From Nannocystales bacterium (lineage in GTDB: Bacteria; Myxococcota_A; Polyangia; Nannocystales; Nannocystaceae), in the NCBI GenBank assembly GCA_050633305.1, contig JBOEGF010000007.1, positions 224,001-288,000 of the forward strand: 64,000 bases of DNA, given 5' to 3'. The position numbers and the translations under genes are program-made. Under the pieces are notes generated by a model that did no database searches, was not told the origin of the DNA, and was given only the letters and a program-made list of their open reading frames with translations. This document shows, piece after piece, positions 32,476 to 51,415 of the stretch (position 1 is the first letter of the stretch; every line of letters starts with the position of its first letter).

Positions 32476-32937
32476 GTGCCGAGCGTGGAACCCGCAGAGC
32501 CCTCTGGGCTCAAGCTTCGCTGGGTCTTGGGTGGAATCGCCATCCTCGTCGTTGCGATGGGGATCGCCGGCTACATGCAGCTGGTCCGAAGCCGTGATCA
32601 CTTCGCGGCGACGACCGAAAAGATGGACGCGCTGGGCAAGACGGTCGACACCGAAGGCTGCATCACCGCGGTCCTCGACTGGCATGCGAATTGTGAGGCC
32701 AACAAGCCGCTTTGTGATAACGGCGTGCCAATGGTCATGACCCACTGCCTCCTCGGTCGGGACCGGACCAGCACGTGCGAGACCGTCGACCTGTCCTCTG
32801 CGAAGGCTAAGTGGGTGTTCGATACTTGCCAAGAACGGGGAACCCCCTGCTCCAATCGCAAAACTTGCGCGTGTGCTAGCGCATACCGGGCTATCGACAG
32901 TTTCTGCCGACACGGGCAAGAAGGGGTCGCGCTGTGA
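32476..32937 (+). CDS. Membrane-anchored Cys-rich hypothetical protein (10 Cys)
   Basis: N-terminal TM followed by 10 Cys; its stop overlaps the ctaB start (GTGA). Confidence 0.7.
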   Translation: MPSVEPAEPSGLKLRWVLGGIAILVVAMGIAGYMQLVRSRDHFAATTEKMDALGKTVDTEGCITAVLDWHANCEANKPLCDNGVPMVMTHCLLGRDRTSTCETVDLSSAKAKWVFDTCQERGTPCSNRKTCACASAYRAIDSFCRHGQEGVAL

Positions 32938-33797
32938 AGACTCCAAGCCGAACCGCCGACCTCGTCGCGCTGACCAAGCCATCCATCACCCGGATGTGTC
33001 TGATGATGGCCGGGGGCGGCATGGCGCTCGCGCCCGGCTCGGTCGACTGGGTCACGGGCGTCTCCACCTTCGTGGGTGTCGGCCTGGCTGTCGGTGGCGC
33101 CAACGCGTTCAACATGTGGTGGGAGCGCAACACCGACGGGCTGATGTCCCGGACCAAGCGGCGTCCCTTGCCGACCGGCCGGGTCCGGGCGGCGACTGCC
33201 TTCAAATTCGCGGCGGCGCTCAGCCTCGCTTCGCTCGTCGTGCTGGCGCTGGGCACCAACGTGCTCACCGCGGTTCTCGCCGCGCTCGCCATCTTCAGCT
33301 ACGTCGCCGTCTACACGCCGCTCAAGTACAAGACGCCCTCCGCCCTCATCATCGGAGCGGTGCCCGGTGCGGCGCCTCCTCTTCTGGGTTGGACCGCGGT
33401 CACCGACAGCGTCGATCCTCCCGCGATCGTCCTGTTTGCGATCTTGCTCGTGTGGCAGTTGCCGCACTTCATCGCGATCGCGATCTATCGCAAGCAGGAG
33501 TACGCGCGGGCCGGCATCAAGGTGGTTCCGCTTGTCCGCGGTGAGCCCATCGCGAAGATTCAAGCCGTCGCCTGGGCGCTGGTGCTCGTGCCGCTGACGC
33601 TTCTGCTCGTCCCGGTCGGTGGGGCAGGGCTCATCTACTTCGTTTCGGCCGCGCTGCTCGGTGCCGCGTTCTTGGGTTGGAGTTTCACCGGCCTGGACAA
33701 TGACGCCGGCGTTCGATGGGCTCGCAACTACTTCCTCGCTTCGCTGGTGTACCTGCCAGCGCTCACGTTGGCGTTGGTCGCCGACGTGTTCCTCTAG
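32934..33797 (+). CDS. ctaB: Protoheme IX farnesyltransferase (heme o synthase)
   Basis: LTKP, NMWWER.TD.LM.RT..RPLP.G, YTPLK, GAVPGA.PPL.GW, WQLPHF.AIA, Y..AG. Confidence 0.93.
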   Translation: MKTPSRTADLVALTKPSITRMCLMMAGGGMALAPGSVDWVTGVSTFVGVGLAVGGANAFNMWWERNTDGLMSRTKRRPLPTGRVRAATAFKFAAALSLASLVVLALGTNVLTAVLAALAIFSYVAVYTPLKYKTPSALIIGAVPGAAPPLLGWTAVTDSVDPPAIVLFAILLVWQLPHFIAIAIYRKQEYARAGIKVVPLVRGEPIAKIQAVAWALVLVPLTLLLVPVGGAGLIYFVSAALLGAAFLGWSFTGLDNDAGVRWARNYFLASLVYLPALTLALVADVFL

Positions 33798-33842: not shown

Positions 33843-34526
33843 ATGGCCGCGCCTCCCCCAGACTTCGAGCCCCCCGCCTGGCTGGAGTTCCTACGTCGCC
33901 ACATTTGGGTGATCATGGGCGGCCTCGCGGTCGTCACGATCACCTTGCTGCGCCCCTACATGCGTCACATTCCGGACCCTCCGGAGGTGATGTTCACGCT
34001 GCCGAGTGACTACGCGTTGGTCGACCACGAAGGTCGACCGTTCAACCCGGAGACGCTCAAAGGAGAGGTGTGGGTGGCGGGCTTCGTGTTCACCCGGTGC
34101 CCGAGCAGTTGCCCCGCGGTGACCCGCGCGATGCAAGACCTCTACGCCCGGTTCGAACGCAACAGCGTCAACGTGAAGATGGTCTCCTTCTCGGTCGATC
34201 CCGAGTACGACACCCCCGAGGTCCTGGGCGCCTATCACGACGAGTTTGCGACCGAGGACGACGAGGCGTGGCGGTTCGTGACCGGCGACCTGCCGGCCGT
34301 CACCGCACTGCTCGAGGGTGGCTTCAAGCTCGGCGTTGGCGACCGGACCGAAGTCGACGGTCTCTTCGACATCGCGCACTCCACCAAGCTCGCCCTCGTC
34401 GATGGCGATGGGAACGTGCGCGGCTTTTACGGGCTCGATCCGACGCCCAGCGTGGATGGGGGGCTCGACGAACTCTATGAGCGAGCCGACCGCGTGATGA
34501 TGATGGAGCGGAGCAAGCGGAAATGA
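33843..34526 (+). CDS. SCO1/SenC copper chaperone
   Basis: FTRCPSSCP (CxxxC), SVDPEYDTP, HSTK.ALVD. Confidence 0.9.
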   Translation: MAAPPPDFEPPAWLEFLRRHIWVIMGGLAVVTITLLRPYMRHIPDPPEVMFTLPSDYALVDHEGRPFNPETLKGEVWVAGFVFTRCPSSCPAVTRAMQDLYARFERNSVNVKMVSFSVDPEYDTPEVLGAYHDEFATEDDEAWRFVTGDLPAVTALLEGGFKLGVGDRTEVDGLFDIAHSTKLALVDGDGNVRGFYGLDPTPSVDGGLDELYERADRVMMMERSKRK

Positions 34527-34963
34527 CGCGCTGCGCAGCACTCGTTGCGGTGGCCGCAGCCACTGCCTCCGTCTCCGCCTGCGAGGAGGATCCCCCCAAG
34601 TTCTCGGCGCCGATGGTGCTCGGAGGCGAAGAGGTTCCCGCGGAGGTGCTCAATGCCGGACATCGCAGCTTCGAGATGCGCTGCGCGAGCTGTCACGGCC
34701 GGGATGGGTCAGGGCAGGGCCCCGCATCCTCCGGCCTGGCCCACCCGCCGCGTGACTTTCGACAAGCCGACTTCAAATACAAGTCGGTCGCCGATGGGGC
34801 ATTGCCTTCCGACGAGGATCTCGACATCACCATCCGCAACGGCAAGCTCGCCAACGGGATGCCCGCGTTCAGCGGCCTGTCGGACGACGACCGGCACGCA
34901 ATCATCCAGTATCTCAAGACCTTCTCGCCCCGCTGGGCCGAGGCAAAGCCGGAGGCATCTTGA
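34523..34963 (+). CDS. Monoheme cytochrome c (probable lipoprotein)
   Basis: Lipobox-like VSAC; CASCHG..G.G.GP; PPRDF; GMPAF. Confidence 0.88.
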   Translation: MTRCAALVAVAAATASVSACEEDPPKFSAPMVLGGEEVPAEVLNAGHRSFEMRCASCHGRDGSGQGPASSGLAHPPRDFRQADFKYKSVADGALPSDEDLDITIRNGKLANGMPAFSGLSDDDRHAIIQYLKTFSPRWAEAKPEAS

Positions 34964-35112
34964 TGATGACGATGGCTCGGTCGACCCACTTTCGAAGCGA
35001 TCATGATCCCTGCGCGAATCGCCGCGGTGATCAGTCTCTCGAACACCTTGCTCATCAACCCCAGGTGGCCGCGGAAACGCGGTTCTCCAGGCTTTCAAAG
35101 CGCATTCCCTTG

Positions 35113-35131
35113 TTGCGGCAACCTGTCGCAA
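35113..35131. promoter_or_regulatory. RegA/PrrA/RegR-like operator upstream of actA
   Basis: Imperfect inverted repeat TTGCGGC-AACCT-GTCGCAA matching GCGnC-N5-GnCGC. Confidence 0.5.
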
Positions 35132-35376
35132 TTGATAGGGTCCGCGCCGGATTCAGCGGGATGTACGCACTTCTTTCCGCCGCGACAGGCACCCCTCGTG
35201 GTTGCTCTCTTTGCTGTACGGATTTCCGTAGGGCGAAGGGCGTCGTTGAATTCGGTTTCGCGGATTCCGCGACTCTCTGCACACCCACCCCATCAAACGT
35301 CGGGGACGACGAACTTGTTTCTTCGCGCACTCGCGAAGTCTTCGAGTCCATGCAGTCCCCCAGGACGGTGAACTAG

Positions 35377-36045
35377 ATGCCTGCCATCTTCCCTCGCTGG
35401 ACGAACACTCTCCCAGTCGTACTCGGACTGATCGCTCCCATTCTCGGAGCCGGCGCCATCTTCACGGTTTGGTACTGGTTCTCACCGCAATACACCGACG
35501 TCGGCTATCAGCCGGCTCAACCGGTGCCGTACAGCCACAAGCTGCACGCGGGTGAGATGGGGATGGACTGTCGCTACTGCCACAACACTGTGGAAACTGC
35601 GGCCGTTGCGGCGATCCCGCCCACGCAAACCTGCATGAACTGCCACGACGGTCTCGTGCAGACGACGAACCCTGGCGGCCCCTACGAGGGCCGGATCGCC
35701 AACCTCAAGAAAAGCTGGGAGACCGGCGAGGCTGTCGAATGGGTTCGCGTCCACATGCTTCCGGACTACGCGTACTTCAACCACTCGCCGCACGTGGCGG
35801 CAGGGGTTGGCTGCGCGAGCTGTCACGGGCGTGTCGACCAGATGGTCGTCGTCTCGCAGGACCAACCACTTTCCATGGGCTGGTGCCTGGATTGCCACCG
35901 CAATCCCAAGCCCAACCTCCGCCCGCTCGACCAGGTCACGAACATGAACTGGAACTCGGACGCAGAAAACTACGATCCGGACCGCGACCCCGAGCGCAAG
36001 CGCAAGGTCAACCCGCCGGTCCACTGCTCGGGATGTCACCGATAG
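35377..36045 (+). CDS. actA: Alternative complex III pentaheme cytochrome c subunit
   Basis: N-terminal TM; QPVPYSHKLH; five CxxCH (CRYCH, CMNCH, CASCH, CLDCH, CSGCH). Confidence 0.93.
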   Translation: MPAIFPRWTNTLPVVLGLIAPILGAGAIFTVWYWFSPQYTDVGYQPAQPVPYSHKLHAGEMGMDCRYCHNTVETAAVAAIPPTQTCMNCHDGLVQTTNPGGPYEGRIANLKKSWETGEAVEWVRVHMLPDYAYFNHSPHVAAGVGCASCHGRVDQMVVVSQDQPLSMGWCLDCHRNPKPNLRPLDQVTNMNWNSDAENYDPDRDPERKRKVNPPVHCSGCHR

Positions 36046-36064: not shown

Positions 36065-39000
36065 ATGAAGAAGCTCAACGTCGTCAATGGCAAGGCCGCC
36101 CCGCAGCGCCTCGGCCCCATCCAACCCCAGGGTGAGGTGGCCAACCGAGTCGTGCAGCGTGGGTCGCAGTTCTGGCGGAGCCTTCAGGGCCGTTCAGAAA
36201 GCCCGCAGGAAAAAGATGCTCACGCCGACACGTGGAAGGAGTTCCCCGAGGGAGCCGAAGAGCTGGAGATCCCAGCCGACGGTGTCTCTCGCCGGAACTT
36301 CTTCGGCCTGATCGGTTCGGGCGCAGCGCTGGCAGGGGTCTCGATGACCACCACCGGCTGCATCCGCAAGCCGCAGGAAAACATCCTTCCGTTCAAGACG
36401 CGCCCCGAGGATGTCATCCCGGGCAAGCCGATGTTCTACGCGTCGGCCTTTGCGCTCGGCGGGTCGGTCGAGGGCGTCGTGGTCGAGAGCCACGACGGCC
36501 GTCCGATCAAACTCGAAGGCAACGGAAACCACTCCGGCTCGGGCGGAGCCACCTCGCTGTACGCACAGGCGTCGATCCTGGATCTCTACGATCCGGACCG
36601 CAGCCGGATGCCCATGAAGGACGGCGAGATCAGCGACTGGAGCGCGGCGCGAGCCGGCCTCACGACGCTGCTCGACGGAAAGAGCAAGGCAAAGGGCGCG
36701 GGCTTGGCGTTTGTCGTTCGCGACATGCCTTCGCCGACCAACCGCAGCTTGCTCGCCAGCATGAAGCAGCGGTACCCGCAGGCGCGATTCTTCGACGGCG
36801 ATTCGCTGCGCAACGCGCAATCGGTCGCGGTTGCGGAAATGCTCGCCGGCGACGGCGCTCGGTTCCGTTACTCGCTCGAGGGAGCCAAGGTCATCGCATC
36901 GTTCGATGCCGACTTCCTGGGTTCTAACTTCGAAGACGGCAACCGACTCTCGCGAGAGTGGTCGGGCACCCGCCAGGTCGTCGGTCCCACTGACCCGATG
37001 TCCCGGCTGTACGTCTTCGAGCCGCACCTGAGCAACACCGGCATGATGGCCGACCACCGGGCACGCATCCGCGGCAGCCAGGTGGGCGACGCGCTCATCG
37101 CACTCGCCAAGGCCCTCATGGGTGGCAAGTACGACGCGGTCAAGGCACCCCCGGGCTTCTCGGTCGACGCGCTCCCCGCCGTCCAACTCGACGAGGGCAC
37201 CCAGGCCGTCGTCGAGGTGTTGGCGCAAGACCTTGCGGAGGCCGTCGAGAACGACCGCTGCAAAGAAGCGGCGGCTGCGGCGGCTGCCGGGGCAAAGCCC
37301 TCGCGATACCGTCCGCTCTGCAAGTCTGCCGTCATGGTCGGCGAACGTCAGCCCATGTGGGTCCACGCCCTCGCGGCTGCGATCAACTCGGCTGTCCGCA
37401 ACACCGGCACCATGGTGCGCTGGCGGTTCGACCGCTCGGCCGTCCCGCTGGAGACGCTCACCGCGCTCTCCGAGGGACTCGGCAAGGACATCGACACGGT
37501 CGTCTGCGTCGACACCAACCCGGCATACGACGGGCTCTCCGACCACGGATTGGCTGAGAAGCTGACCGCGGCGACAACGATCCACCTCGGCCTGTACCGA
37601 GACGAGACGGGCGCGCTCGCCAACTGGCACCTGCCCATCTCCCACTTCCTCGAGGCCTGGGGCGACGCGGAAAGCACGGATGGGACCATCGCCATCGTGC
37701 AGCCGCTCATCGATCCGCTGCACGACACGTACAGCGACACCGAGCTGCTCCATCTGATTGCCACGGGCAAGCTCGACCGCGGAAGCGCGGTCCTGAAGAA
37801 GTTCTGGAAAGGCCAGCTCGGTCCCAGCTTCTCCGACAAGACATGGCGCCGCTGGCTCCACGACGGCGTCGTCACCGGAGCACCGCGCGAGGTCAACATC
37901 CCGCCGCTCTCCAACTGGGAGAAGATCCCGCCGGCTGTCACCGAAGGGCGCAAGCCGGTCGAGGGGATGGAGATCAACTTCCACCTCGACCCGACGCTTG
38001 CCGACGGTCGCTACGGAAACAACGCGTGGCTTCAAGAGCTGCCGCATCCGGTCTCCAAGCTCGCTTGGGACAACGCGGCGTACGTCTCGCCTGGGACCGC
38101 GAACAAGCTTGGCGTTGCCAACGAAGACTTGGTCACCGTCACGGTGACCGGGGGCGGTTCGATGGAACTCCCCATCTTCATCATGCCGGGCCAGGCGACC
38201 GACACCGTGTCGATCAACATCGGCAGCGGCCGCACGGTCGTCCGCTGGGATGGCGACGAGGGCGTGGTCTCCAAGGGCGCCGGCTTCAATGCCAATGTCG
38301 CGCGGAGCTCGGCCTCGGCTTGGATCGCAGGCGGAACGCTCGCGAAGGCCAGCGGAACCTACGCCCTGGCCAACACTCAGGATTACGGCTCGCTCAAGCC
38401 GCCTGCGTACCTCAACAACTTCAAGGAGCGCCCCATCGTGCTCGAGGCCACCACGGAGGAGTTCAGCGCCGAGCCGAACTTCGTCGAGAAGGCCAACTTG
38501 ATGGACGAGGAGCGCCTCCGCCACCTGTGGGAGCCTCCGAAGCTCACGGGCAAGCAACAGTGGGGCATGAGCGTCGACCTCAACACGTGCACCGGCTGCC
38601 TGAGCTGTGTGGTCGCGTGTCAGGCCGAGAACAACATCGCCGTCGTCGGCAAGGAGCAGGTCATCAACGGCCGCGAGCTCCACTGGATTCGACTCGACCG
38701 CTACTACCGCGCGGTCGACCCCAAGACCCGTCACGACGAGTCCTGGGAGAACATCGACGACGTCGAGGCTGCGATCCAGCCCATGTTCTGCCAGCACTGC
38801 GAGTCGGCTCCCTGTGAGTCGGTCTGCCCGGTTGCCGCCACCGTCCACAGCCCCGAGGGGCTCAACGACATGGTCTACAACCGCTGCATTGGCACGCGGT
38901 ACTGCTCGAACAACTGCCCGTACAAAGTGCGGCGGTACAACTTCTTCAACTACAACCTCGGCCTGCGACCCGGCGACTGGAAGATCTATCGCCAGGACGA

Positions 39001-39465
39001 CCAGACCCGAAAAGGCCTGGAGCGCGAGGACGCCTGGCTTCGCCAGATGCAGAAGAACCCGGACGTCACCGTCCGCTTCCGCGGCATCATGGAGAAGTGC
39101 ACGTACTGCGTGCAGCGCATCAACGCGCAGAAGATCGAAGCCCATGTGGCCGGCAAGGATGTCGTCGAAGACGGCAAGATCCTCACCGCCTGTCAGCAGG
39201 TCTGCCCGACCGGCGCCATGGTCTTCGGAGACATCCACGACCCCGACAGTGCAGTGAGCAAGGCGAAGCGTTCGCCTCGCAACTACGCGGTGTTGCGTGA
39301 CCTCAACACGCAGCCCCGGACCACGTACCTCGCTCGCATCCGCAACCCGCACCCGACGCTGGGCGCGATTCGCAAGAAGGCCGAGCAGGACTTCGCAGCC
39401 TCTCAAGGCGAGACCCCCGCGAGCAGCGATGCCGCAGCGGCCGAGCAGACTGGGGAGCATCACTA

Positions 39466-39466
<1 letters not shown>
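36065..39466 (+). CDS. actB: Alternative complex III subunit B (molybdopterin-oxidoreductase-like + Fe-S domain, Tat signal)
   Basis: FWRSL; SRRNFF Tat motif followed by [80 protein letters not shown]. Confidence 0.93.
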
Positions 39467-41236
<1,770 letters not shown>

Positions 41237-41244
<8 letters not shown>

Positions 41245-41778: not shown

Positions 41779-42453
41779 ATGTCTTTCATGCATCGATCTT
41801 TCGTAGCCTTCGCGCTGGTCGGCCTTGCAGGCTGTTGGGGCAACTACTCCGATTCGCCTCCTGTCCACCTCCAGCAGAACATGGACCTGCAGGAGCGGGG
41901 CGAGGCTCAAGAGCGCAACCAGTTCTTCGACGACGGTCGTGTGATGCGGACTCCGCCCACCGGCACCGTCGCGGTCGGCTTCCTCAAGGATGACGACCAC
42001 CTCTGGAGAGGCATCGACGACCAGGGCAAGCTCGCGGCAACACTGCCTGAAGGCATGACGCTCAACGCCGAGCTCCTCGCGCGTGGCGAGGACCGCTACA
42101 ACATCTACTGCGCGCCATGCCATGGCGAGCAGGGCCGCGGCGATGGCATGGCCAACCGTCGTGTGGCGGATGGCTTCGCGCAGGCCCCCGCCAACTTCCA
42201 CGACGAGCAGTACCAACCGGCACCGCTCGGCTACCTCTTCAAAGTCGGCTCCGAGGGCTACGGCGTGATGAAGGGCTACACGGCCCAGATCCCCGACCCC
42301 AAGGACCGCTGGGCAATCGCTGCCTGGGTCCGCGTGCTTCAGGTGTCGCACCGTTCCAACAAGGCCGAGGTCCAGAAGCAGTTGGCCCAGGCCGGCAACG
42401 CACCCGCCAAAGCCCAAGGCAAGACTCAAGCCAGGAACGGAGCCGCAAAATGA
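41779..42453 (+). CDS. actE: Alternative complex III monoheme cytochrome c lipoprotein
   Basis: Lipobox LAGC; MR.PP.GTVA; RYNIYCAPCHG; G.M.GY; DRWAIAAWVRVLQ. Confidence 0.9.
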   Translation: MSFMHRSFVAFALVGLAGCWGNYSDSPPVHLQQNMDLQERGEAQERNQFFDDGRVMRTPPTGTVAVGFLKDDDHLWRGIDDQGKLAATLPEGMTLNAELLARGEDRYNIYCAPCHGEQGRGDGMANRRVADGFAQAPANFHDEQYQPAPLGYLFKVGSEGYGVMKGYTAQIPDPKDRWAIAAWVRVLQVSHRSNKAEVQKQLAQAGNAPAKAQGKTQARNGAAK

Positions 42454-43691
42454 GCGCTCACGACGAACCAGTTGTCCGCCCCGAACAGGTGAACATCTCC
42501 GGCAGCTCCATGTGGAAGAAGCTTCCCATGATCGCTGGCGTGATCGGGATCCTCGCCCTCGCAGGTGCCTTCGGGATGAAGGGGGAGCACGACGAAGGCT
42601 TCTACTTCTCGTACCTGACCTCCACCATGTTCTGGCTCGCGCTGAGCCTCGGTGGGCTGTTCTTCGTGCTGGTGCAGCACGCGGCCCGAGCGGGCTGGTC
42701 GATCGTCGTCCGACGAATCGCCGAGAACATGGCGCTGACGTTGCCGATGATGGGGCTGCTGATCCTGCCCGTCATCTTCCTGGGCGCGCATGACCTGTTC
42801 CACTGGACGCACACCGAGGTCGTCTCCTCGGACCCGATGCTCTCGTGGAAGGAGCCGTTCCTCAACGAGAGCAGCTTCCAAGTCCGGGCGTTCATCTACA
42901 TCGCCGTCTGGTCGATCTTCGGCATCTTCTACTGGCGCACATCGACGTCGCAAGACGACGCGAGCGGGAAGGCCGTCGAAGAGAAGAGCCACAAGATGCG
43001 CTGGGCCGCCCCGCTGGGCATCGCGGTCTTCGCTCTGTCGCTGACGTTCTCGGCCTTCGACTGGCTGATGTCGCTCGACCCGCACTGGTTCTCGACCATC
43101 TTCGGCGCGTACTACTTCGCGGGCGCAGTGGTCTCGACCCACGCCTTCATCGCACTGCTCGTCATCCTCTTGCACCGCAGCGGCTACCTCCGCGGCGTGG
43201 TCACGAAGGAGCACTTCCACGACCTGGGCAAGATGATGTTCGGATTCACGGTGTTCTGGGCGTACATGGCGTTCTCCCAGTACATGCTCATCTGGTACGC
43301 GACCATTCCTGAGGAGACCGAATGGTTCAGCTACCGCGGAGCAGGGGACTACCTCGCGCTCTCGATCGTCCTGGCGTTCGCTCGCTTCGTGTTCCCGTTC
43401 CTCGGGCTCATCTCGCGACACATCAAGCGCAACCCCAAGACGCTCGCGTTCTGGGCAGTGTGGATTCTGATCGCAGAGTTCATCGACATGTTCTGGCTGA
43501 TCGACCCCGTGGGCCCGCACAACGCTGGCAACCATCACCCCTCGATCGAGTTCGGGCTGGTGGACATCCTCTGCTTCGTCGGTATCGGTGGCCTGTGGCT
43601 CGCCGTGATGACCTGGGGGCTGTCGCGCAAAGCGCTCGTCCCCGTCAAAGATCCCCGACTCGCTGAGTCGGTTCACTTTGAGAACTTCTAA
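42450..43691 (+). CDS. actF: Alternative complex III subunit F
   Basis: Polytopic; AGWS...RR, LFHW, FDWLMSLDPHWFSTIFG, HDLGK..F.F..FWAY..FSQY.LIWY..IPEE. Confidence 0.9.
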   Translation: MSAHDEPVVRPEQVNISGSSMWKKLPMIAGVIGILALAGAFGMKGEHDEGFYFSYLTSTMFWLALSLGGLFFVLVQHAARAGWSIVVRRIAENMALTLPMMGLLILPVIFLGAHDLFHWTHTEVVSSDPMLSWKEPFLNESSFQVRAFIYIAVWSIFGIFYWRTSTSQDDASGKAVEEKSHKMRWAAPLGIAVFALSLTFSAFDWLMSLDPHWFSTIFGAYYFAGAVVSTHAFIALLVILLHRSGYLRGVVTKEHFHDLGKMMFGFTVFWAYMAFSQYMLIWYATIPEETEWFSYRGAGDYLALSIVLAFARFVFPFLGLISRHIKRNPKTLAFWAVWILIAEFIDMFWLIDPVGPHNAGNHHPSIEFGLVDILCFVGIGGLWLAVMTWGLSRKALVPVKDPRLAESVHFENF

Positions 43692-43716: not shown

Positions 43717-44928
43717 ATGAGCGAAGAACACGGACACAACGACGGAGCCCATGAGATCGACAACATGCCCGCAGGGCGTCTTGTCACGATTCTCACGATC
43801 CTGGGCTCCCTGACTCTCGGGCTGTGCTTCGGCGTCATCCAGCTGTTCAACGAGCAGGTGCGCCAGATTCAGGGCGAGCGAGCCGAAGGCGGGAATGCCT
43901 CCGAGCTGGCGTACGCCGCCGAGATGGCTGCGATCGCGGACGGGTACGGCCAGTACGAGATCGTCAAGCCGGTCGGTGAGGGCAAGCCGGACAAGGTGAC
44001 GACCCGCTACTTCATGCCGGTGGGCAAGGCCTCACAGCAGATTCTCGACAACCCGGCTCTGCTTGCCGGTCAGCGCCCGGCGAAGGATTGGGCGGGGACC
44101 GGCACGGGCAAGAAGGTTCAGGAGTGGGGCGGCTTGCCCAGCGTCACCCCGAAGAAGCCCGACGCCAAGGCCCTGGGCGACGTCAAGAAGGCCGCCGACA
44201 AGAAGGGCCCTCGCGAGCACCGCTTCTCGTTCGCGATCAGTGGCGAGGATCTCGTGCTCCTCGGCGAGGTGCCGTCCGAGGCCGACAGCAAGGCGCTCGA
44301 GGGCGCTGCCAAGAAGACCCGCTTCGGCGACAAGGTGCGCAACAAGCTCAAGGTCACCAACGCACCGGGCAAGCCCGGGTTCGACAGCGCCTACAAGCGG
44401 GCGTTGGCGGCGGTGGCTCTGATGAGCTCGGGGAACGCCAAGTTCACGGCCGGCAAACTCTCGATGACCGGGTTTGTCCCGGATGCGAACAAAGCCAAGT
44501 TCGACGAGCTCTCGCAGGCTGCAGGTGGACCGCCGATGGGGAAAATCGAGGTCGCCAGCACCGAACTCGCCGACGACTGCGACAAGAAGTTCGCCAAGGC
44601 GTTGAAGCGGCCAATCCGTTTCGGAACCGCGAGCGCCGACATCGACGAGAAGTCGATGAAGACCCTCGACAAGCTGGCGGCGATCGCCAAGGAATGCCCC
44701 GGACGTTTTGTGGTCGAGGGCCACAGCGACAACGAGGGCATGCCCGACGCCAACAAGCAGCTCAGCCTTCAGCGCGCCAACGCCGTGTCTGCATCGCTGC
44801 AGGAAAAAGGTGTTGAGAAGAAGCGCCTGCGGGCAAAGGGCTACGGCCAAGAGCGCCCGCTCGTTCCCAACGACAACGATGCCGGTCGGAAGAAGAACCG
44901 TCGCATCGAAATCCACATCGCCCGCTAG
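43717..44928 (+). CDS. ActG-position membrane protein fused to BON-like and OmpA-like peptidoglycan-binding domains
   Basis: Single N-terminal TM; YG.Y...RYFMPVGKA; LVLLGEVPS...VRNKLKV (BON-like); IRF...SA.I, VEGHSD, N..LS.QRA..V, GYGQERP, NRRIE (OmpA_C). Confidence 0.8.
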   Translation: MSEEHGHNDGAHEIDNMPAGRLVTILTILGSLTLGLCFGVIQLFNEQVRQIQGERAEGGNASELAYAAEMAAIADGYGQYEIVKPVGEGKPDKVTTRYFMPVGKASQQILDNPALLAGQRPAKDWAGTGTGKKVQEWGGLPSVTPKKPDAKALGDVKKAADKKGPREHRFSFAISGEDLVLLGEVPSEADSKALEGAAKKTRFGDKVRNKLKVTNAPGKPGFDSAYKRALAAVALMSSGNAKFTAGKLSMTGFVPDANKAKFDELSQAAGGPPMGKIEVASTELADDCDKKFAKALKRPIRFGTASADIDEKSMKTLDKLAAIAKECPGRFVVEGHSDNEGMPDANKQLSLQRANAVSASLQEKGVEKKRLRAKGYGQERPLVPNDNDAGRKKNRRIEIHIAR

Positions 44929-44955: not shown

Positions 44956-45885
44956 ATGCCCCGTCTCTTCGACAGCCTGCTGACCCGCCTCGCGGGGATC
45001 GTGTTCGCGTTTGCGTTCGCGACCCTTCCGGCGTGGGCCCAGGCCGAGCCAGCGCAACCGCTGTCTCCGGAGATGCGGGCGATCGAGGTCTCGGAGCACA
45101 AGGGGTCGAAGATCGATCCCGAGCTTTCCTTCGTCGACCACACTGGAAAGTCTGTCACCCTCGGGGACTACCTCGACGGCGATCGGCCGGTCCTGCTCAC
45201 GCTGAACTACTTCCGCTGTCGTGTGGTGTGCAGCGTTCAGCTCAACGGCCTCGCCGATGCGTTGGCGGAGCTCGACTGGACCGCGGGGGACGGCAACTTC
45301 CGCATCGTCACCGTCTCGATCGATCCCAACGAGACCCCCGCGGATGCTCGTAAGAAGCGGGACACGATTCTCGCTGCCGTCGACAAGGGTGACGACGTCG
45401 ACTGGCAGTTTCTGACCGGTTCGTCGATCCAGATCCGGGCGCTGTCCGAGCAGCTCGGTATCAGCTACGCCTACGACGCCGAGCAGGACCAGTACGCACA
45501 CCCTGCGGTGGCGATGTTCTTGTCCCCCGAGGGCAAGATCGCTCAGTACCTCTACGGTCTCACCTTCATCCCGCGGGATGTGAAGTTCGCGCTCATCGAG
45601 GCGAGCGAAGGTAAGATCGGTTCTCCCATGGAGCAGCTCTACCTGAGCTGTTTCGCCTACGATCCCACGATTGGGCGGTATGGCCCGTTCGCGTTCGGCA
45701 TGGTCCGACTCGGCGGCGTGCTCACCGTTCTTGTGTTGGGAAGTTTCCTGTTCGTGTTGTGGCGTCGCGACCGTCGCCGCAGCGCAGAAGAATCCTCCTG
45801 GATGCAGTTGCCCTTCGTTCACGAACGAAGCGGCTCCCCTGACCCGATGGACCCCTCCAAACGAAAAGGCGAGGTAGCGAAGTGA
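44956..45885 (+). CDS. SCO family protein (ACIII/oxidase-associated)
   Basis: YFRCRVVC (CxxxC), VSIDP.ET, QYAHPA, YLYG, CFAYDP..GRY, C-terminal TM. Confidence 0.88.
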   Translation: MPRLFDSLLTRLAGIVFAFAFATLPAWAQAEPAQPLSPEMRAIEVSEHKGSKIDPELSFVDHTGKSVTLGDYLDGDRPVLLTLNYFRCRVVCSVQLNGLADALAELDWTAGDGNFRIVTVSIDPNETPADARKKRDTILAAVDKGDDVDWQFLTGSSIQIRALSEQLGISYAYDAEQDQYAHPAVAMFLSPEGKIAQYLYGLTFIPRDVKFALIEASEGKIGSPMEQLYLSCFAYDPTIGRYGPFAFGMVRLGGVLTVLVLGSFLFVLWRRDRRRSAEESSWMQLPFVHERSGSPDPMDPSKRKGEVAK

Positions 45886-49353: not shown

Positions 49354-50115
49354 GTGGCTGATAACAACGACAACAAGCTCTTCTTCGGCGGCAAAGCAGC
49401 CGACGACTTCGTCGAGTGCCACGAGCACATCTCGCCGGTCTCGATGTACCTCAAGGTCCTCGCGGCGCTATTTGTGCTGACCGGGCTCACCTACGCGGTC
49501 TCGTACGCGAACCTGGGGCCAGCATCGCTCCCGGTCGCGATGGTCGTCGCAGCCATGAAGGCCACGCTCGTGAGCGCGTTCTTCATGCACCTCATCTACG
49601 ACGACAAGTTCCACGTCTTCATCTTTGGGGCGTCGCTCTTGTTCGTGGGGATCTTCTTCACGTTCACCATCTTCGACCTTGAGTCGCGGGATCGTCTGAG
49701 CGAGGCGCAGGCCACCGACTTCCGGCGCGCCGACGGCGGCTGGGACGACATGGGTCGGATGGGCGCGGCAACCAACACCGAAGCCAGCCGGCCCGCGTGC
49801 TCCGACGGCACGGTGCCGATGTGCGACCAGACCTTCGCGGTCTGCAACGGCGAGGACGCGCATGGCGGCGAGGATTTCTTGGTCCGCCGGATCGAGAACG
49901 AGTGCTTCGTCTCCGAGATGGTCCCCTCCGTTGGCGCCGACGGAAAGCCGGTTCTCCAGGACGGCGTCGCCGTGATGGTCGATGCTGGCTGCGTGCTGCC
50001 CAAGCTGGGTTGCGTCAACCCGCACACCGCGGAAGGCCACAAGGCTTCGGCTGCCAAAGCCGCTGCGCCCGCCGAGGGCGAGGCCGCCGCGGAAGCGCCC
50101 AAGCCCGCGCACTAA
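49354..50115 (+). CDS. coxD: Cytochrome c oxidase subunit IV with Cys-rich C-terminal extension
   Basis: Y.KV..AL.VLT..T, KATLV..FFMHL; three TMs; then a ~140-aa tail containing six Cys. Confidence 0.85.
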   Translation: MADNNDNKLFFGGKAADDFVECHEHISPVSMYLKVLAALFVLTGLTYAVSYANLGPASLPVAMVVAAMKATLVSAFFMHLIYDDKFHVFIFGASLLFVGIFFTFTIFDLESRDRLSEAQATDFRRADGGWDDMGRMGAATNTEASRPACSDGTVPMCDQTFAVCNGEDAHGGEDFLVRRIENECFVSEMVPSVGADGKPVLQDGVAVMVDAGCVLPKLGCVNPHTAEGHKASAAKAAAPAEGEAAAEAPKPAH

Positions 50116-50169: not shown

Positions 50170-50329
50170 GGTCGTTCTGGGGGCTGGCCCCCGCAGCCGG
50201 CGTCATCCCACACCCCGAGTGACGATGCATCGGTGGCGCTGGGTTCGCGGGTGAGGCAAGCGGTCGCTACTGATGGCCTGATGGGCTGCCAGCGGCTCCA
50301 CACTGTGGCACCCTGGAGTCGTGCGCCTT

Positions 50330-51415
50330 GTGAAACTGCGCCGCACGACGGAGCCGCGCGCTTCGTCGGCGCCGGCCCATGTCTCCGTGAACGGTTCGGT
50401 CGACCTCGTCGATCGCACCGACCGGCGCGTGCGCTACTTGCGGATTTCACTCCTGGATCGGTGCAACTACCGATGCACCTACTGCATGCCCGACGAGCCG
50501 ATGGAGTTCGGCGCGCGGGATGAAGTCCTCCGGCTTGAAGAGGTGGTCACGCTCGCGGCCGCTTTCGCGCGTTGGGGTGTCGACCGAGTTCGCCTGACCG
50601 GGGGCGAGCCCACACTCCGGCGCGGCCTGGTCGATCTGGTCGGTAACCTCTCCGGGCTGGAGACCGAGTCCGGAAAGTCGCTGCAGGTCGTGATGACGAC
50701 CAACGCCGAGCGACTGGAGCCGCTGGTCGGTCCGTTGCGGTCCGCTGGGCTCCATGGGCTGACGGTCTCGCTGGACAGTCTCGACCCAGAACGTTTCGCC
50801 CGCATCACCCGGCGCGGCAATCTCGTCAATGTCCTCGCGGGGCTCGACGCGGCAGCGAGTGCGGGCTTTGACCACGTCAAGCTGAACACCGTGGCCATCA
50901 AGGGCTTCAACGACCACGAACTCGCCGACTTGGCGCAGTTCGCTTGGGCTCGTGGAATCACGCCGCGCTTCATCGAGCAGATGCCGATGAGCGGAGGGGC
51001 CACGTTCATGCCCGGGGAGATGATGTCGGCGCACGAGGTGCGTGCGGTCGTCGAACGGGGCCTTGGAGCCGCCGTGGTCGCGGATTCTGGAGACGGCGTG
51101 CGCGGGCAGGGCCCCGCGTCGTACTGGCGCGTGGAGTCGGGCCCGTGGGCGGGTCGCCGCTTGGGCACGATCGGGGCGCTCACCGAAAACTTCTGCGCCA
51201 GCTGCAACCGCCTGCGCGTGTCGGCGACCGGGCAGCTCCACGGTTGTCTGGCACGTGATGAAACCGGAGACCTACGCGCAGCCCTTCGGGGCGGCCAAGT
51301 CGGAGACGTCGAGCGCGTGGTACAGCGCGTGCTCGTCACCAAACGCGACGCGCACGCATTCGGCCTCGATGGCCGGGGCGGGCCGCGCAAAGCAATGATG
51401 AGCATCGGGGGATGA
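50330..51415 (+). CDS. moaA: GTP 3',8-cyclase (molybdenum cofactor biosynthesis)
   Basis: YLRISL.DRCNYRCTYCMP, RLTGGEP, RFIEQMP, FCASCNRLR.SA.G.L.GCL, C-terminal IGG; start uncertain. Confidence 0.92.
   Translation: MKLRRTTEPRASSAPAHVSVNGSVDLVDRTDRRVRYLRISLLDRCNYRCTYCMPDEPMEFGARDEVLRLEEVVTLAAAFARWGVDRVRLTGGEPTLRRGLVDLVGNLSGLETESGKSLQVVMTTNAERLEPLVGPLRSAGLHGLTVSLDSLDPERFARITRRGNLVNVLAGLDAAASAGFDHVKLNTVAIKGFNDHELADLAQFAWARGITPRFIEQMPMSGGATFMPGEMMSAHEVRAVVERGLGAAVVADSGDGVRGQGPASYWRVESGPWAGRRLGTIGALTENFCASCNRLRVSATGQLHGCLARDETGDLRAALRGGQVGDVERVVQRVLVTKRDAHAFGLDGRGGPRKAMMSIGG

Follow-up and report, generated by a model that had tools for sequence, protein, structure and literature searches.

The window analysed here is a 64,000-nucleotide stretch of DNA from a bacterium of the Nannocystales (assembly GCA_050633305.1, contig JBOEGF010000007.1, forward-strand positions 224,001 to 288,000), and our subject is an open reading frame (ORF) of 403 aa within its respiratory super-operon. 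In this operon, genes for UbiA, Sco and a cytochrome c precede those for ActA-F of alternative complex III (ACIII); the 403-aa ORF, another Sco gene, CoxBACD, MoaA and CcmE/CcmF come next. The original prediction, made from the DNA letters, had placed the ORF between actF and sco/coxB, in the position of the ActG subunit gene, and had proposed that it fuses an ActG-like part to BON and OmpA-like domains, possibly tethering a respiratory complex to peptidoglycan. Annotation of the neighbours with Pfam, NCBIfam and PDB confirms this position: the actF stop at 43691 is followed, after a 25-nt gap, by the ORF start at 43717, and 27 nt separate the end of the ORF from the sco start at 44956. The features of the locus, in window coordinates, are:

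42450..43691, + strand: actF (PDB 6f0k_F, E 2e-82), the constant upstream neighbour of the family described below
43717-44928, + strand: ORF of 403 aa, ATG start, TAG stop
43717..43779, + strand: residues 1-21, acidic His-rich N-terminus with H-E-I-D at 12-15, presumably cytoplasmic
43780..43848, + strand: residues 22-44, single transmembrane (TM) helix (Kyte-Doolittle peak 2.2, the only segment above 1.6)
43849..44064, + strand: residues 45-116, conserved, predicted periplasmic core of the post-ActF family, with YGQYEIV and RYFMPVGKA..DNPALL
44065..44214, + strand: residues 117-166, Lys/Pro/Gly-rich linker of ~50 residues, W125 and EWGG 136-139 conserved
44215..44559, + strand: residues 167-281, alpha/beta domain of the BON type with six strands and three helices, resembling the central part of ArfA/Rv0899
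44560..44928, + strand: residues 282-403 and stop, OmpA_C-like domain with GHSD, LSLQRA, NRRIE and Cys288/Cys327
44956..45885, + strand: sco (SCO1/SenC; Pfam PF02630, E 8e-11), with coxBACD next downstream

The gene is real and conserved. Every motif named beforehand is present (YGQYEIV 77-83, RYFMPVGKA 97-105, GHSD 335-338, LSLQRA 349-354 and NRRIE 394-398), and residues 22-44 are the sole hydrophobic segment, in agreement with the single TM helix that had been predicted; the Cys residues of the protein are 37, 288 and 327. Full-length orthologues fall into 22 clusters with 54-88% identity, and mean pairwise identity is 64-87% in every region of the orthologues (23 sequences). An artefact of gene fusion or assembly is rejected, since all seven genomes of the genus carry the fusion and 22 more protein clusters have it as well.

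The C-terminal part pairs a BON-type with an OmpA_C domain. The full-length AlphaFold 2 (AF2) model was built on the 23 orthologues and is confident from residue 166 to the end; in it the BON-type domain (predicted local distance difference test score, pLDDT, 82-93) is made of strands 170-175, 178-185, 207-213, 238-244, 247-254 and 274-281 and of helices 188-199, 222-235 and 256-266. Pfam BON (PF04972) matches residues 176-214 of the 403-aa protein below its cut-off (E 4.5e-4, 20.9 bits for a cut-off of 27) and is found at E<=0.01 in 22/23 orthologues (best 6.5e-6). Pfam OmpA (PF00691) matches residues 302-395 with E 1e-21 (77.4 bits against a cut-off of 27.2), and all 23 orthologues match as well. 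In the PDB, the C-terminal domain is matched by 5wtp (E 2.5e-17), then by Pal, PomB, YfiB and OprF, and Foldseek superposes 5wtl with a root-mean-square deviation of 1.2 over 116 columns (E 2.5e-11). Both domains together align with 2l26, the two-domain nuclear magnetic resonance structure of Rv0899/ArfA, over residues 171-400 (E 2e-13 by HMMER; 253 columns and E 4e-11 by Foldseek). The AF2 model agrees with the published account of Rv0899, whose central BON-superfamily domain is likewise made of six strands and three helices (PMC6151718). C288 and C327 are conserved in 23/23 orthologues. The BON-like region, the complete OmpA_C domain with its Cys pair and the resemblance to ArfA are supported as first proposed.

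ArfA (Rv0899, OmpATb) of Mycobacterium tuberculosis carries a membrane anchor, a BON-superfamily domain and an OmpA-like C domain in this same order. In the 403-aa protein, by contrast, the anchor is the ACIII-slot module, the operon is actF/sco and not arfABC, and identity to ArfA is ~26%; the likeness is one of domain architecture and implies no role in ammonia release or acid adaptation. One alternative is that the protein belongs chiefly to the envelope, in the manner of ArfA/OmpA, and has an ActG-like helix simply as its anchor; it would be co-expressed with the respiratory genes without being a stable part of ACIII. Its BON and OmpA domains would then stabilise or sense the envelope (phospholipid and wall) under the osmotic, pH or oxidative load that accompanies respiration. 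The shared TM-BON-OmpA order (PMC6151718), the phospholipid binding of the DolP BON domain (PMC7806268), the fact that ActG went unseen in the R. marinus map (PMC5928083), and the 20 OmpA_C matches in genome G000, which mark the domain as promiscuous there, would all fit such a protein. However, the N-terminal module is more than a hydrophobic anchor, its TM helix and core being conserved across many families and always found in the actF slot (49/49), and the genes flanking the ORF are actF and sco, with no arfB/arfC-like partners adjacent. We consider this alternative unlikely, if worth keeping in mind.

Wall anchoring of an energy-converting inner-membrane complex has a precedent in MotB/PomB, where an N-in single TM helix and a periplasmic linker lead to an OmpA-like domain, and MotB/PomB-type matches in NCBIfam and PDB cover residues 295-401 of the 403-aa protein. 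Here, unlike in MotB/PomB, the partner complex would generate and not consume proton-motive force (PMF). A MotB/PomB stator subunit as such is rejected, as the TM segment 22-44 contains no Asp/Glu and the scan of the flanking genes found no motA/pomA. Pal, the OmpA C-terminal domain, YiaD and YfiB also have the OmpA_C fold, together with the GH.D...N..LS..RA...NRR.E signature; these are outer-membrane barrels or lipoproteins, whereas a respiratory-operon module is predicted to hold the 403-aa protein in the inner membrane.

Sequence comparisons set residues 1-135 apart as a separate protein family. In the AF2 model of this N-terminal module, built on 62 sequences (pLDDT 88.5), the TM segment lies within a helix spanning residues 19-58 (pLDDT 96-99), followed by a helix at 61-75, a hairpin at 78-84/93-99 and a helix at 102-116. 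L29, L32, T33, L34, V40, Q42, L43 and F44 are invariant among 11 sequences from 5 genera; across 62 family members E13 and D15 are invariant and H12 is at least 90% conserved. The linker (residues 117-166) has pLDDT <50 in the full-length model and a mean identity of 64% among orthologues, and it occupies the place where stand-alone relatives have a 'GW.HPDD' end or a Pro/Ala-rich tail. We infer an N-in/C-out topology from the OmpA domain, the invariant Cys pair and homologues fused to cytochrome c, which place the C-terminus in the periplasm. On the presumed cytoplasmic side, a near-invariant 'GGHE[IV]D' (43750-43761), often after a His run, precedes the TM helix and may be a metal or partner contact; the HE.D motif is absent from the most divergent forms (loci L090-L092).

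Four profiles recur below: A3, the narrow module profile; A4, which has the window protein as its first row; A8, the broad profile; and A9, made of short myxobacterial forms. Searched against 1.84 billion representative proteins, A3 yields 100 matches at E<=1e-3, all of 51-332 aa except for the fusion cluster P0012 at 404 aa; the usual family member is a stand-alone protein of 105-270 aa. Clusters of ten distant members are named only 'hypothetical protein', Myxococcota. No meaningful Pfam family describes the module: 16 families match one or two of the 62 members each (best E 0.0045), OmpA not being among them. A word-index search with residues 1-145 for shorter relatives returned one 120-aa fragment only, the same kind of search with A8 returned nine proteins without informative names (three of them already among the matches of the 1.84-billion search), and the ESM Atlas, queried with residues 1-140, gave unnamed clusters with a best score of 0.82 and no lead.

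The genomic position of the module is constant. It was found in 26 of 301 evenly sampled Myxococcota genomes, each time directly after actF (26/26), and then followed by sco at 24 loci, by coxB alone at one and by neither within the flank at one; at E<=1e-50, 148 of these 301 genomes have an ActF. Named genome records, scanned independently, contributed 23 loci from Myxococcota and from no other phylum, Nannocystis bainbridge BB15-2 among them, where the module lies between actF and sco or coxB in 23/23 cases, with sco adjoining in 22. ActF is thus immediately upstream at all 49 places found, bearing in mind that the two samples share some genomes (identical slot proteins), so that 49 places are not 49 independent genomes. 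In one family, f41 (L029:1054-2091, L036:1489-2355 (-), L037:1300-2037 and L027:1543-2310 (-)), the TM helix is preceded by a very acidic and presumably cytoplasmic N-terminal extension of 90-150 residues, and the core reads 'Y[RQ][MV]PV' then 'HP[LM]G'.

What follows the module depends on the lineage: some proteins simply end there, and others continue into a cytochrome c domain, a Pro/Ala-rich tail or BON+OmpA. The automated choice of the ORF after actF was wrong at several high-GC loci and the survey of slot proteins is to be read as qualitative. The original prediction had suggested looking at the spread of the fusion across taxa, and this proved narrow: BON+OmpA occurs in 7/7 genomes of the window's genus and, among the family genomes searched, only in that genus. 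Elsewhere in the family the match is limited to residues ~3-145 (G007-G023, with a best E of 5e-23 or weaker), and at four loci of sister genera the order is actF-X-sco-coxB, X being a protein of 200-250 aa in which a Pro/Ala-rich tail of 70-150 residues replaces BON+OmpA. Stand-alone post-ActF proteins, such as that of Nannocystis bainbridge (L064), have a homologous N-terminal module in the same slot and either end after 'GW.HPDD' or carry a Pro/Ala-rich tail or cytochrome c, with OmpA in 0 of 62 aligned members.

Ten further actF loci, where the module profile finds nothing, were also examined. Four of them (L095 and L090-L092) encode a single-TM protein with an 'IPI.RAM'-type motif: that of L095 has 109 aa and ends ...RFRIPIQRAMDLVVRDGL, and those of L090-L092 continue from the motif into a Pro/Ala tail. 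Three cytochrome c fusions (L075:2698-3333, L079:802-1473 (-) and L087:2728-3378) are monohaem, with Pfam Cytochrom_C at E 4e-8 to 4e-11. None of the three has a sco or cox match within ~800 nt downstream, which argues that the protein travels with ACIII; the fused cytochrome could be an extra electron-output arm tethered to the complex. The end of the contig truncates a related ORF at L082, the slot of L083 is taken by an unrelated gene, and L094 stops at actF. The divergent slot forms are tied to the module family by an hhalign comparison of A6 with A7 (97.2%, E 3e-11), and A4 aligns with A9 over 109 columns (97.0%, E 9e-11). On these alignments, the slot protein is a conserved anchor (N-terminus, helix and short periplasmic core) followed by a lineage-specific C-terminal module. 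Profile A4 also detects a further cytochrome c fusion (CxxCH motif) at L042:1501-2220.

Is this anchor ActG? According to Sousa et al. 2018 (PMC5928083), ActG lacks cofactors and is predicted to cross the membrane with a single helix, and in C. aurantiacus the gene order is actG-sco-cox (PMC3150298). The 403-aa protein fits this description: its gene stands between actF and sco/cox with nothing intervening, a single TM helix is predicted, and its sequence holds no CxxCH or other cofactor motif. It differs from ActG (~110 aa) by its 403 aa, with a linker, a BON-type domain, an OmpA_C domain and a His-rich HE.D N-terminus. In the PDB, four entries of Chloroflexus ACIII (8K9E/8K9F/8X2J/9ILT) have a chain G of 112 aa that is named ActG. 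Among 177,635 PDB sequences, the top match of A9 is this ActG (8k9e_G, E 0.012, marginal), a short stretch reading ...LLNSYGYTMEGKVHIPIDRAMDLIVERGL being aligned with the family motif, and A8 reaches the same chain at E 0.14. The 'YG..RIPI.RAM' motif that the original prediction named is found in L095 (...RFRIPIQRAMDLVV) and in the solved Chloroflexus ActG (8k9e_G, ...SYGYTMEGKVHIPIDRAMDLIVERGL). More generally, a C-proximal motif of the type '..YG....G.v.IPI.RAM.LvV' reads RYFMPVGKASQQIL in the 403-aa protein, RFRIPIQRAMDLVV in short myxobacterial forms and VHIPIDRAMDLIVE in 8k9e_G. The comparison is with the Chloroflexus structure, by way of intermediate profiles. We favour homology because the top match belongs to just that complex which the neighbouring genes encode and has the same length (112 vs 109 aa) and the same topology: the N-terminal module is probably homologous to ActG. 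Of the proposed ActG-position subunit, then, the slot and a conserved single-TM module found only after actF are supported, whereas the homology itself is reached through chained profiles with marginal E values.

The company of sco might instead point not to a structural subunit but to a factor that helps to assemble or mature ACIII or the caa3 oxidase, working transiently beside Sco, with the OmpA module only localising the factor. Adjoining sco genes at 24/26 and 22/23 loci, the conserved His-rich N-terminus with its invariant E..D and the absence of ActG from some act clusters (PMC5928083) are in keeping with such a factor. However, CuA and haem c mature in the periplasm, whereas a cytoplasmic location is predicted for the His-rich motif, which is moreover missing in the divergent L090-L092; the cytochrome c-fused members stay by actF with no sco/cox match in the next ~800 nt, and chain G of the Chloroflexus entries is a named ActG. 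An assembly factor therefore appears quite improbable.

The reading that we favour is that the 403-aa protein is a single-pass inner-membrane protein, ActG-like over its first ~116 residues and ArfA-like (BON+OmpA_C) over its last ~237, which would sit in ACIII and tether it to peptidoglycan; we regard this as evenly balanced between being right and wrong. If chain G of the Chloroflexus structure is taken as the model, the N-terminal helix and core would occupy the place of ActG within ACIII, and the ~50-residue linker would let BON+OmpA reach the sacculus. Asp338 (GH.D) and Arg353 (LS..RA) are presumably the positions that contact diaminopimelate in OmpA-like domains, following work on A. baumannii OmpA. 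Both are present in the window protein, and it is through them that the OmpA domain is predicted to bind peptidoglycan non-covalently. ACIII, and perhaps the adjacent caa3 oxidase, would in this way be immobilised or positioned relative to the sacculus, as flagellar stators are by MotB/PomB, and the BON domain might add a phospholipid contact, as in DolP (PMC7806268). A single ActD is found in the genome, pointing to one ACIII.

A number of observations weigh against this proposal: (i), Sousa et al. report no density for ActG in the R. marinus map and give ActG as the only subunit missing from some act clusters (PMC5928083), and ActG may be loosely bound or dispensable; (ii), the link to ActG needs intermediate profiles, with E values (0.012 and 0.14) that are marginal and cover ~30 residues, and hhalign of A3 against A9 reaches only 59% (E 9e-5, 25 columns); (iii), phmmer with residues 1-168 and profiles A3 and A6 retrieved no ActG; (iv), fold searches with the N-terminal model (Foldseek, VIA-align) retrieved no ACIII chain, a helix with a small domain being hard to match; (v), the fusion is confined to one genus, which means that a wall tether is not needed for ACIII function and is an embellishment; and (vi), Asp338 is kept in only 13/23 orthologues and Arg353 in 21/23, with NRRIE degenerate in the sequences that lack Asp338, which indicates that canonical peptidoglycan binding is not uniformly selected. 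As to the fold searches, Foldseek gave 0 matches at E<=1e-3, a wide VIA search gave a best Z of 5.0, all matches being to long helices, and VIA on the Foldseek list a best Z of 3.5. This absence is not the same as differing folds, and neither supports nor contradicts ActG homology. A complex prediction of ActF (alignment A5) with residues 1-135 (A4) scored 0.00 without controls and says nothing either way.

The substitutions at Asp338 bear on a further possibility, that the OmpA-like domain no longer anchors to the wall and that the whole extension is a periplasmic spacer or docking arm, like the Pro/Ala tails of sister genera, which might contact, for example, a soluble electron carrier or a partner in the periplasm or outer membrane. 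The 10/23 orthologues in which Asp338 is replaced, with their degenerate NRRIE, and the tails or cytochrome c domains found at the same place in other lineages are what such an arm would look like. Yet the full GH[ST]D...LS..RA...NRRIE signature is retained in the window protein and in 6/7 genomes of the genus, Arg353 is nearly always kept and the Pfam OmpA score is high (77 bits), which makes a mere spacer rather improbable. To return to the wall tether, the overall idea of the original prediction is upheld as regards architecture, slot and synteny, and is weakened by the restriction to one genus, the marginal ActG link and the loss of the canonical Asp in part of the orthologues.

The broader picture that we would tentatively draw is that of a PMF-generating ACIII, probably together with the caa3 oxidase, stapled to the sacculus by one of its own subunits, with ActG as a modular adaptor arm and not a vestige; cytochrome c, a periplasm-spanning Pro/Ala spacer and a wall anchor would be variants of this arm. 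All the domains involved are of known kinds, and what appears new is their combination and the interchangeable modules in the ActG slot. In the searched literature, which left most subscription journals out of scope, neither a fusion nor module swapping in the ActG slot was found, and a text search likewise found no report linking ACIII with peptidoglycan binding. ActG is the least understood subunit of ACIII, without an assigned function, and the finding that the Myxococcota slot protein is a conserved anchor with interchangeable periplasmic modules suggests that ActG is an attachment point on the complex. If so, the modular arm would give a first handle on the purpose of ActG, and the peptidoglycan-binding version would, to judge from our searches, make this the first respiratory complex to have a wall tether dedicated to it, with consequences for lateral mobility, for supercomplex organisation in a diderm and for the placing of respiration relative to the envelope.

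The remaining genes of the operon were annotated with Pfam, NCBIfam and PDB. Those of ACIII upstream of actF are:

35377-36045: ActA, multihaem cytochrome
36065-39466: ActB, molybdopterin-like part and 4Fe-4S domains
39466-41244: ActC, NrfD-type membrane subunit
next: ActD (PF11821, E 7e-65)
next: ActE, monohaem cytochrome c

For actF the true start codon, an ATG at 42450, overlaps with the stop of actE. Within the last actF codons, a 7-bp GC-rich hairpin at 43655-43671 is followed by a T-rich stretch and looks terminator-like. It could attenuate read-through into the 403-aa ORF or be incidental; with 18 terminator-like sites in the region against 11.1 +/- 3.8 in shuffles, we take it as incidental. 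Upstream of actA, a second SCO1/SenC gene (33843-34526), a small cytochrome c gene (34523-34963) and a 138-aa ORF without a Pfam match (34960-35376) abut or overlap by 4 nt over 33843-35376, and a gene of the UbiA family, similar to haem O synthase, lies ahead of them at 32934-33797.

Downstream of Sco, CoxB, CoxA, CoxC and CoxD follow in this order. The CoxD ORF (49354-50115) encodes 253 aa; its COX4_pro match covers residues 34-101 only and its relatives align only to about residue 125-135, which points either to a lineage-specific C-terminal half of CoxD or to an over-called ORF. A MoaA-like radical SAM gene (50321-51415) of the molybdenum cofactor synthesis type separates the oxidase genes from ccmE/ccmF, even though ActB is regarded as a molybdopterin-free relative of molybdenum enzymes.

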